Shown here in pieces: positions 3,611 to 4,298 of a stretch of DNA of 8,956 nt. The translations under genes were made by a program, and so were the position numbers. This DNA comes from a virus. Its lineage: Duplodnaviria > Heunggongvirae > Uroviricota > Caudoviricetes. The notes under the pieces are model-generated. The model did no database searches and was not told the origin of the DNA. It saw only the letters and a list, made by a program, of their open reading frames with translations. The stretch lies in IMG/VR virus record IMGVR_UViG_2751185961_000010; one strand, given 5' to 3'. Numbering within the stretch: position 1 is the first letter of the stretch; the number at the start of each line of letters is the position of its first letter.

Positions 3611-3889
3611 TCAGCCTGGCGGGCGATTTTTGGTTGCTTTTAGCCGCCGTGGGTATTTCCTGAGAAACTCTTCAAGTGCAAATTTTTTATCTCTTGTATG
3701 CGATGCCTTTGACTCGTCGTCACATGTTTTTCCGCGCCTTATCCTGTTTTCAATAAAACGGGAGGCGGCCTTTTTATTCAGCGATGAATCTATCGGGCTG
3801 CTCTTTGTTTGCTGCTCGACAATGGCATCCATGAGTAGTTGGTGTTGTAGTTGTCGTAAAAATTTCTCATCGTCTGGTGATAAATCCAT
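3611..3889 (-). CDS. hypothetical small protein, paralog A (92 aa) of a tandem pair; possible regulator
   Basis: - strand ORF MDLSPDDEKFLRQLQ...RDKKFALEEFLRKYPRRLKATKNRPPG. C-terminal motif K(K/R)FALE(E/A)FL.K.PRRL...KNR is shared with the downstream paralog. AGGAAA about 6 nt upstream of the ATG. A - strand terminator follows. Confidence 0.45.
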   Translation of the reverse strand: MDLSPDDEKFLRQLQHQLLMDAIVEQQTKSSPIDSSLNKKAASRFIENRIRRGKTCDDESKASHTRDKKFALEEFLRKYPRRLKATKNRPPG

Positions 3890-3985
3890 ACTTATTTCCT
3901 GTACAGCTGAGCGACGCAGTACCTCACACCACGGCGCTGATGGTTTTTATTCGCTTTATGGAGTCGGAGAAGCAAAAGCGGATCG

Positions 3986-4165
3986 CTATCGGTTTTTAGG
4001 CGAGATTAACCGCCGAGGGCATTTATCCAGAAATGCTTCAAGCGCAAATCGTTTTGGTCTGGTGAGAGGAGGTGGATTAAGCAAAGACTCTCGCTTCTGG
4101 CGTGCTTTTTCGCGCTGGCGCTCAAGTATGGATAATGCGATTGCCTGTAATTCTTCGTTGGTCAT
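3986..4165 (-). CDS. hypothetical small protein, paralog B (59 aa) of a tandem pair; possible regulator
   Basis: Hand-translated - strand ORF (below the ORF-track length cutoff): MTNEELQAIALSILERQREKARQKRESLLNPPPLTRPKRFALEAFLDKCPRRLISPKNR. Shares the C-terminal motif and the upstream AGTACCTCA box with paralog A. Confidence 0.45.
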   Translation of the reverse strand: MTNEELQAIALSILERQREKARQKRESLLNPPPLTRPKRFALEAFLDKCPRRLISPKNR

Positions 4166-4298
4166 TGTCTGTACCCGTAAAGCGGTGCGCTGTAGTACCT
4201 CATATCACAGCGCAGGTATTTTTTATGGTTGTAATTTGCGTGATGATTCAGTCGCTTTGCGACACACTGCATAAACATAAATAACGTGATGTTATTAT
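4166..4298. promoter_or_regulatory. Divergent control region between the - strand paralog and the + strand early operon; extended -10 candidate TGtTATTAT at 4290-4298
   Basis: Inverted repeat GCGCTGT-N13-ACAGCGC (4186-4212), short palindrome GTCGC-TTT-GCGAC, and TGtTATTAT facing rightward. No convincing -35. Confidence 0.3.

Follow-up and report, generated by a model that had tools for sequence, protein, structure and literature searches.

A long stop-free reading frame lies antisense to a cassette of small-protein genes in a P4-like satellite of E. coli

In satellite P4, translation downstream of the immunity-controlled promoter PLE is said to begin with the gene kil. The start of eta reportedly lies ahead of PLE, and eta is reportedly translated from the late promoter PLL alone; when it carries nonsense mutations, transcription reportedly ends prematurely in a Rho-dependent way. 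The immI region of phages P1 and P7 is said to run c4 antisense RNA, icd, ant, and in P1 the translation of icd keeps the transcript alive. Here we analyse an 8,956-nucleotide stretch (hereafter the window) of the virus record IMGVR_UViG_2751185961_000010, which is a P4-like satellite of the Gram-negative phage-inducible chromosomal island (PICI) type. Within it, two small genes on the minus strand (genes 1 and 2) lie antisense to a 255-aa open reading frame (ORF) on the plus strand. On balance we favour the view that both strands of 3507-4274 are used, the minus strand for an accessory cassette and the plus strand for a frame that would escort the alpA-operon transcript. More tentatively, at a little short of even chances, we suggest that the plus frame may be kept open purely for translation, giving ribosome escort with an unconstrained product across the convergent cassette and the RNA immunity region.

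The window resembles the left operon of P4 in order and orientation: an AlpA/Vis-type gene is followed by an ORF that covers an isrK/seqA-type leader RNA and a C4/CI-type antisense RNA and has an Icd/Kil-like end. In P4 itself this is a 214-aa ORF (8812-8168) with an Ash region at residues 37-161 and an Icd-like end at 161-208, which overlaps the end of vis and covers isrK (8692-8615) and C4 (8507-8420); we take it to be the nested eta/kil pair. Unlike P4, the window's group places Rha/Bro genes and one to five opposite-strand small genes between the alpA-type gene and the Ash part, and its ORF is lengthened by 100-450 codons, antisense through this cassette, whereas P4 has no antisense genes. 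A role for translation has reportedly been demonstrated in P4; in the window's group it would follow by analogy. The likeness to P1/P7 immI lies in a C4-family RNA with a loop that can pair both with a site upstream and with the ribosome-binding region of Icd. The window differs in having a replication module after icd and no ant, and P1 is not known to have an antisense cassette or a long upstream ORF.

Two further comparisons come from the literature. In the isrK-orf45-anrP region of Salmonella Gifsy-1 (PMC4825925), translation of orf45 drives downstream expression by coupling, and, as in the window, an isrK-family leader with its own terminator precedes an ORF that is conserved in nucleotides and variable in amino acids; the downstream effector there is a different one, an antiterminator, and antisense protein genes are absent. 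The parts of PMC10111431 covered here give Gram-negative PICIs a four-zone order (int-alpA; Rha/Bro genes and immunity RNAs, the 'dynamic/Bro zone'; primase and single-stranded DNA-binding protein, SSB; late zone), which the window matches. Those same parts describe PICI genes as mostly unidirectional and do not mention an antisense small-gene cassette or a stop-free frame.

The features at the heart of the comparison are as follows.

3507..4274, plus strand: 255-aa frame antisense to both small genes, starting at the conserved M(T/A)GKTKAT
3611..3889, minus strand: small gene 1, 92 aa, a FALE paralogue (see below) with C-terminal KKFALEEFLRKYPRRLKATKNRPPG, a motif in common with gene 2 and 49 E. 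coli clusters
3986..4165, minus strand: small gene 2, a FALE member of 59 aa, here in an allele with the end ...PRRLISPKNR in place of ...PRRLKATKNRPPG
3514..3544, minus strand: intrinsic terminator of the cassette, GGCGACC-loop-GGTCGCC, stem 3544-3524, then TTTGTTTT

The plus frame antisense to the cassette was free of stops in every island that keeps the replication/immunity module, over 275-691 codons. Related loci are labelled with L-numbers (L002 is O157 F6667, L019 is P4 and L060 is Escherichia phage vB_KppS-Ant, LR881103.1); open lengths, counted stop to stop, were:

L001: 515 codons
L006: 527 codons
L009: 518 codons
L010: 674 codons
L012: 357 codons
L013: 623 codons
L015: 524 codons
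Non-remnant metagenome loci: 275-691 codons
vB_KppS-Ant (induced satellite): 348 codons

All recognised cassette genes lie in one phase relative to this frame, the phase in which the two strands share the wobble position and in which a plus-strand stop requires NNT before a His or Gln codon or NNY before a TAN codon. Neither combination occurs in the cassette genes (0 of 95 His/Gln codons and 0 of 27 TAN codons, respectively), whose third positions are T in 18% of cases and T or C in 38%. When the synonymous codons of 15 cassette genes were redrawn with the minus-strand proteins held fixed, 17-19 plus-strand stops were expected, compared with zero in the actual genes (P = 1.5e-10 under their own codon usage, 4e-11 under island usage), P values that overstate independence because the sampled islands are related and share some cassette genes. 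The 62-aa orthologues of gene 2 have diverged to a dS of about 0.3-0.7, yet no plus-strand stop has arisen, and the spacers of 13-153 codons between minus-strand genes are also open. Ordinary window genes in the equivalent antisense phase served as a control and contained 55 stops in 1865 codons (2.95%); the DUF3950 genes of lambda and an Stx phage, a second control, contained 0 and 1 and are too short to inform. These codon statistics indicate that selection keeps the plus frame stop-free; no amino-acid constraint on it is detectable. Remnants without the replication module, of the Sakai type and others, have a broken plus frame and retain small minus-strand ORFs; they are a weak control, since the breaks come from rearrangements outside the 62-aa gene rather than from substitutions inside it.

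The minus-strand genes are related to each other much as the initial annotation had described. Both ORFs appear in the ORF list, and a BLASTP comparison of the 92-aa with the 59-aa protein aligned only the last 25 residues (TRDKKFALEEFLRKYPRRLKATKNR and TRPKRFALEAFLDKCPRRLISPKNR, respectively; 17/25 identical, E 5e-9), confirming the common C-terminal motif. The homologous upstream blocks lie at 3898-3950 and 4174-4226, 276 nt apart and 74% identical over 53 nt; each contains AGTACCTCA (3918-3926 and 4194-4202) flanked by the 7-nt arms of an inverted repeat, and CTGTAC is found upstream of each ATG (3899-3904 and 4169-4174). In gene 1, AGGAAATAAGT stands directly ahead of the ATG, and the Shine-Dalgarno sequence is good. 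The proposal that promoter plus gene had been copied as a unit of about 350 bp held for the duplication itself and failed for a uniform unit: the spacing of the boxes (276 nt) differs from that of the C-terminal motifs (366 nt), so that clear homology is limited to the box and the final third of each gene. In L002 and other single-copy relatives, the N-terminal part of gene 2 continues, as one gene, into what is the C-terminal end and downstream flank of gene 1. The minus-strand intrinsic terminator predicted to follow the two genes was also found, as a canonical stem and T-run, and its hairpin and T-run are kept at the cassette end in the seven window or cassette variants examined; on the plus strand the same hairpin has no T-run. 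The earlier picture of diverged paralogues that each carry their own conserved upstream element, end at a common terminator and face the early/replication operon is thus supported, and the two genes are genuine members of an unnamed satellite-island family.

Because the plus frame overlies both genes and shares their wobble position, strand assignment had been called ambiguous; this ambiguity is real and proved to be the most informative feature of the locus. Changes at the three codon positions numbered 16/18/42, a coding periodicity with the highest count at the third position. At least one of the two frames must code, since their common third positions change most, and these counts do not separate the two. 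Protein-level comparisons did. Over the motif in 11 diverged paralogues, which are about 53% identical in DNA and keep the minus-strand start, stop and C-terminal motif, the minus frame gave an identity of 0.41 and a BLOSUM score of 1.85 per site, versus 0.36 and 1.10 for the plus frame. Among the 62-aa orthologues, Nei-Gojobori (NG86) dN/dS ranged over all 28 pairs from 0.15 to 0.42 in the minus frame versus 0.31 to 0.74 in the plus frame, and the means of 10 representative pairs were 0.28 and 0.51, with the minus value lower in 10/10. Nine wobble differences were synonymous only in the minus frame and two only in the plus frame. Ribbon-helix-helix (RHH) genes of related cassettes likewise had the lower dN/dS in the minus frame in 10/10 pairs. 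Simulations with selection on the minus frame alone plus a ban on plus-strand stops produced a lower dN/dS in the minus frame in 87-91% of runs, as observed, and simulations with selection on the plus frame alone produced the reverse. Finally, AT skew is positive over the flanking plus-strand genes and negative over 3600-4350.

These substitution patterns point to protein-level selection on the minus strand for gene 2. For gene 1, the strand of constraint in the N-terminal half is ambiguous, and family membership is indicated by its C-terminal motif, Shine-Dalgarno sequence and box. Two findings would have counted against the initial annotation: homologues that preserve the plus frame while disrupting the minus-strand ORFs, or a confident family match for the plus product. 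Homologues did keep the plus frame open, and they left the minus-strand ORFs intact as well; no family in Pfam, NCBIfam or PHROGs matched the 255-aa product over the cassette stretch. Neither strand can be dismissed, because the plus frame is kept open, the minus-strand ORFs are intact and the plus product has no family match.

The plus frame acquires a context from what lies downstream of it.

4286..4804, plus strand: 172-aa ORF of P4 eta/kil architecture; residues 32-118 form an Ash region that lies over the RNA genes, residues 125-167 an Icd-like end
4250..4251: private deletion of 1 nt (G) that separates the 255-aa frame from the Ash and Icd ORF

In relatives, the plus frame runs on into an ORF that covers isrK and C4 and has an Icd-like domain at its end; the 502-aa ORF of L001, for example, has its Ash region at 362-448 and its Icd-like region at 455-497. 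An Ash region and an Icd/Kil-like end in one frame over leader and CI-type RNAs occur in the window, L001 and P4, and in relatives the start of this ORF precedes the immunity-controlled promoter and follows an AlpA/Vis-type gene. The frame is continuous in L020, L001, L006, L009-L015, L051-L059 and L060, and AlpA matches from Pfam are present in relatives. Because the relatives' frame runs into an Ash and Icd-like ORF as in P4, the 255-aa ORF is best read, from its arrangement, as an N-terminal extension of a P4 eta homologue and not as an independent protein gene. Its conserved start, M(T/A)GKTKAT, sits on the minus-strand terminator. Where unfused, this start has a GGGGAG Shine-Dalgarno sequence (seen directly in L013r and deduced from the reading frame in L055), and elsewhere the frame is fused to the preceding ORF or overlaps it through ATGA.

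Several side observations concern these ORFs. L060 is an induced, capsid-encoding satellite with an equivalent arrangement, in which a single DUF3950 gene lies antisense inside the 348-codon frame; the first residues of that frame are MTGKTKAAM and its last part is an Icd-like domain. For the ORF at 4286-4804 and that of P4 at 8168-8812, the database names 'Ash family', 'transcriptional repressor' and 'cI gene product' reflect the old protein reading of P4 cI. PGAP stretches the Ash or Icd-like label to ORFs of 350-670 aa that run antisense through genuine small genes.

A model in which both strands are used would work as follows. In the quiescent island, the cassette would probably be transcribed convergently to the alpA operon and against all other island genes, and this transcription would oppose read-through as long as the island is uninduced. 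Ribosomes would start on the plus frame either coupled to the alpA-Rha genes or at M(T/A)GKTKAT. On induction, translation would proceed continuously over the antisense cassette and the early promoter and on through the leader and CI-type RNAs, shielding the alpA-operon read-through transcript from Rho-dependent termination and bypassing the block that the C4 RNA would impose at the Icd ribosome-binding site. We infer plus-frame translation, its anti-termination role, the timing of cassette expression and transcript interference from the arrangement of the locus.

If this is correct, the segment would be a natural case of two kinds of selection acting on one stretch of DNA, on amino acids in one strand and on the absence of stops in the other, and would bear on the debate over whether such long antisense frames have any meaning in enterobacteria. 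The cassette could then admit new accessory genes only in one phase and with synonymous codons that leave the opposite frame stop-free. The principle of P4 eta and P1 icd, in which translation counters premature termination, would extend to a larger group of Gram-negative PICIs. The same reading explains the implausible 'Icd-like' and 'Ash' calls of 350-670 aa made by annotation pipelines and the small genes that they miss, and mutations that are synonymous on one strand and nonsense on the other offer an experimental handle.

A number of observations weigh against this reading, in addition to the relatedness of the sampled islands. Over the N-terminal 46 codons of gene 1, dN/dS was lower in the plus frame (0.22 vs 0.30 in the minus frame), in about three independent lineages. 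We found no σ70 promoter for the minus-strand cassette with a promoter tool or with a relaxed scan of our own (thresholds 9/12 and 8/12). The plus strand of the cassette lacks an obvious signature of a Rho utilization site (C over G), being not C-rich and G-poor, and the Rho-shielding role is drawn by analogy from what is reported for P4 and P1. In the window and L020, a 72-aa piece that most relatives join to the frame is a separate ORF. Finally, the deletion at 4250/4251 ends the window's plus frame at the stop 4272-4274, so either an unbroken frame is not strictly necessary or the window's copy is in decay. L020 is 99.76% identical to the window, which differs from it by no indel other than the missing G; in L020 the plus frame extends for 457 codons into Icd. 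The break in the window may be decay or may be tolerated thanks to a GTG-ATG restart 12 nt downstream.

We also considered that the plus product itself, and not translation as such, matters, as a long Eta-like isoform with an N-terminal module and the Ash/Icd end on either side of a variable, essentially unconstrained linker. Most relatives have the 72-aa module in frame with the 255-aa frame, so that module, linker and Ash plus Icd form one ORF, and the module is conserved at the protein level (DYM[RH]HIV..[FY]A.E.M.H[VI]K), even in Sakai. This explanation is nonetheless rather unlikely: the module is detached in the window and L020, the ORFs of L013r and L055 begin after it, and the linker is explicable with no constraint at the amino-acid level. 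In the G-run at about 3441 (alignment column 169), the window and L020 are one G short of most relatives, which shifts the frame of the 72-aa module, and at 3507-3510 a G-to-A change makes the 72-aa stop overlap the conserved ATG (ATGA). The arrangement in these two copies looks like a frameshift repaired by translational coupling.

The initial annotation had proposed that the minus-strand ORFs are a repressor or immunity switch, each with its own promoter, facing an early operon that begins near 4293. It could assign neither protein to a family, and searches of Pfam, NCBIfam and PHROGs likewise matched neither. We use 'FALE' as a working name for the family, whose members are 56-92 aa long and consist of an N-terminal helix (...ELQxIALSIxERQREK...), a variable linker and the C-terminal end [KR]FALExF[LV]xKYPRRLKxxKNRPPG. 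A search of 5.8 billion proteins found 1 and 14 relatives of the two window proteins, and a profile search of 1.84 billion cluster representatives found 19 FALE representatives; a second round gave 49 clusters, and those that carry a name are all listed as E. coli 'hypothetical protein'. When one representative genome per species was scanned, FALE appeared only in E. coli and Shigella. PHROGs and PADLOC matched none of the 32 FALE members, the FALE profile had no match among PDB sequences, and a DNA search of a phage collection found nothing. FALE is thus a new, unannotated small-protein family confined to P4-like satellites of E. coli and Shigella. Copies are present in O157:H7 and other pathogenic lineages; we found no mention of ECs1364-1366 in the literature.

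Profile searches and structure prediction gave no sign of repressor character in either protein. AlphaFold2 modelled the gene 2 protein from 32 sequences with a predicted local distance difference test score of 83.5, as one long helix (3-29) and one short helix (41-48) with nothing globular and no DNA-binding domain, and a Foldseek comparison of the model with the PDB returned no match. In related islands, cassettes of one to five small minus-strand genes often interleave FALE with RHH-like genes of the YlcI/YnfO type, one of which passes Pfam DUF3950 (in L054, 28.3 bits, gathering score 25) and one of which is weakly Arc-like. These prophage proteins are similar in size to FALE, occupy the same cassettes and strand and are encoded directly upstream of FALE genes in related islands. 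Neither window protein matches PF13132 or the NCBIfam YlcI/YnfO model, which neighbouring cassette genes in L006 and L054 do, and whereas YlcI/YnfO is β-α-α, the window proteins are predicted to be helix-linker-helix. A type II toxin-antitoxin pair of RHH antitoxin and small toxin was rejected, as the window, L001, L002 and L020 carry FALE without an RHH gene. We infer that FALE proteins are accessory (moron-like) and made while the island is quiescent; because they combine a conserved amphipathic helix with a basic tail, our guess is that they bind a host or helper factor, or nucleic acid. In L017 (2628-3165) and L018, in reverse-complemented locus coordinates, FALE genes (57 and 84 aa) adjoin SIR2_2 and HTH_32 genes and lie between a MASE4/GGDEF gene and a LUD-domain gene, without the long plus frame; these loci may be a remnant island with a defence-like pair.

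The upstream boxes, which had been taken for promoters, behave differently.

3898..3950, minus strand: leader box 1, arms 3911-3917 and 3931-3937, loop 3918-3930 (plus strand AGTACCTCACACC), then the Shine-Dalgarno region of gene 1
4174..4226, minus strand: leader box 2, arms 4187-4193 and 4207-4213 (perfect 7 bp), loop 4194-4206

Ten distinct box copies align with a 7-bp stem, a conserved 13-nt loop (plus strand RRTACCTCAYAYY, minus strand GGUGUGAGGUACU) and GCTTTACAGG directly ahead of the start codon. Both arms have changed together in 3 of the 7 pairs (GCGCCGT/ACGGCGC vs GCGCTGT/ACAGCGC, for example); relative to L006, box 2 has T-A in place of a C-G pair, a compensatory change. The covariation score exceeded all 500 shuffles, and pairing was better as minus-strand RNA (61/70 cells) than as plus-strand RNA (54/70). 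In cassettes with RHH genes, including L006, the box is found after the RHH stop codon and ahead of the FALE start. Because of this location and its pairing as RNA, we interpret the box as a hairpin element of an mRNA leader or intercistronic region rather than as a promoter, a role that the scans for σ70 sites also fail to support. Operator repeats or a promoter upstream of each gene were not found, and the arm sequence varies while pairing is kept. We rejected the box as a plus-strand terminator given its 13-nt loop, its displaced T-run (absent in L006) and its better minus-strand pairing; no plus-strand terminator was found from the Rha genes to the Icd-like ORF besides that of isrK. Compared by eye, the box and the C4 loop share only a 4-nt GAGG/CCUC match. 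Alongside the new family, the locus defines a conserved leader hairpin in E. coli satellites.

Immunity is instead accounted for on the plus strand.

4391..4467, plus strand: isrK / P4 seqA-type leader RNA, RF01394, 52.1 bits, above the gathering score; terminator 4448-4461 and T-run
4492..4579, plus strand: C4 / P4 CI-type antisense RNA, RF01695, 73.8 bits (gathering score 45)
4634..4804, plus strand: nested Icd-like (kil-type) ORF, 56 aa; Shine-Dalgarno region GTCAGAGGAG (4616-4625), which matches the C4 loop target at 7/8

The leader RNA and the C4/CI RNA stand in tandem on the early strand, as does the equivalent pair in P4. The C4 loop CCUCUAAC (4536-4543) is exactly complementary (8/8) to GTTAGAGG at 4432-4439, just before the isrK/seqA terminator, and at 7/8 to GTCAGAGG at 4616-4623, 11 nt before the ATG at 4634 of the Icd-like ORF. 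The C4/CI RNA is the actual immunity factor of such elements, and there is no need for a protein repressor because the P4/P1 arrangement of loop and target complementarity is present. For the plus-strand early transcript the most likely start is near 4391, at the first position of the isrK model and following a conserved TATACT (4378-4383), and not near 4293. The minus-strand ORFs were also rejected as parts of the RNA immunity system itself: their position is upstream of the leader, on the opposite strand, and they have no counterpart in P4 or P1. The equivalence of isrK and seqA is taken from PMC4825925 and PMC10111431.

We therefore regard as improbable that the small proteins form a duplicated repressor or immunity module, with promoter-operator boxes of its own, that controls the facing early operon. 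The divergent position, the duplicated upstream element and the dedicated terminator would suit such a module, related cassettes hold RHH-type (Arc/DUF3950-like) genes that could bind DNA, and an exact 13-nt direct repeat CGCAGGTATTTTT (4211-4223 and 4315-4327) flanks the intergenic region. Against it stand the complete set of isrK/seqA, C4/CI and Icd on the plus strand, two proteins with neither a DNA-binding domain nor a known relative, the failure to find a σ70 promoter in or near the boxes, a box that is intercistronic in L006 and behaves as an RNA hairpin, and a window cassette without an RHH gene. The copies of the 13-nt repeat are 104 nt apart, and the second is partly kept in Sakai and L009.

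It is distinctly improbable, in our judgement, that the minus-strand genes are real and the long plus frame is an unselected by-product of composition and shared ancestry. Third positions in the cassette genes are rich in A, a bias that gives fewer plus-strand stops, the islands are related and have genes in common, and the window tolerates a break; but codons redrawn from the genes' own usage would still give 17 stops where none occurs, spacers without minus-strand genes are open as well, a single phase holds for all cassette genes, paralogues far more diverged than the 62-aa orthologues also lack stops, and the frame joins a known type of translated ORF in phase.

That only the plus strand codes, for a 'Bro-network' or Eta-like protein of 255 aa (457-691 aa in relatives) with the minus-strand ORFs as its shadow, is highly improbable. 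In its favour, the frame is open, annotators (PGAP and others) call such frames single coding sequences named 'Icd-like' or 'Ash', a shadow frame with 2-3% stops per codon would give minus-strand ORFs of roughly 57-92 codons, and dN/dS in the N-terminal half of the 92-aa ORF leans slightly to the plus frame. Against it, the minus frame is preferred for the 62-aa and RHH genes by dN/dS, by the wobble sign test and in simulation, the independent Pfam model DUF3950 matches a minus-strand ORF, start, stop and C-terminal motif persist across paralogues so diverged in DNA, the minus-strand terminator and RNA hairpin are conserved, AT skew points to minus-strand coding, and the plus product is Cys/Ser/Arg-rich with no family match over the cassette.

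The remaining genes of the window fit the satellite assignment, with int, alpA and primase co-oriented and a Bro/Rha zone followed by a replication zone.

85-1149, plus strand: integrase
1792-1995, plus strand: AlpA-type gene
2060-2575 and 2568-3305, plus strand: two Rha-family genes
3292-3510, plus strand: 72-aa ORF, whose TGA overlaps the ATG of the 255-aa frame (ATGA)
Downstream of the C4/CI RNA, all plus strand: Icd-like ORF, DUF4222 gene, primase (5865-7361) and SSB

The small-gene cassette thus sits between the Rha/Bro zone and the immunity RNAs. Close relatives in E. coli chromosomes adjoin tRNA-Gly or yicC, and roughly 1,100 E. coli genomes gave matches to this region. Positions 1-98 of the window are identical to the end of an IS1F copy in E. 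coli Sakai, and the integrase ORF begins only at ...YPEVSLSDAR, its N-terminal arm-binding part having been lost to the IS1 insertion; this island copy is probably immobilised. In related islands (L002, 9373-9739; L012 and L014), a ProQ/FinO-family RNA chaperone and a PerC-family regulator lie downstream of ssb. In the window, ssb is directly followed by a match to group II intron domains 1-4 (8560-8713, plus strand; RF02003, 67.1 bits, gathering score 49), an intron that runs off the window end.

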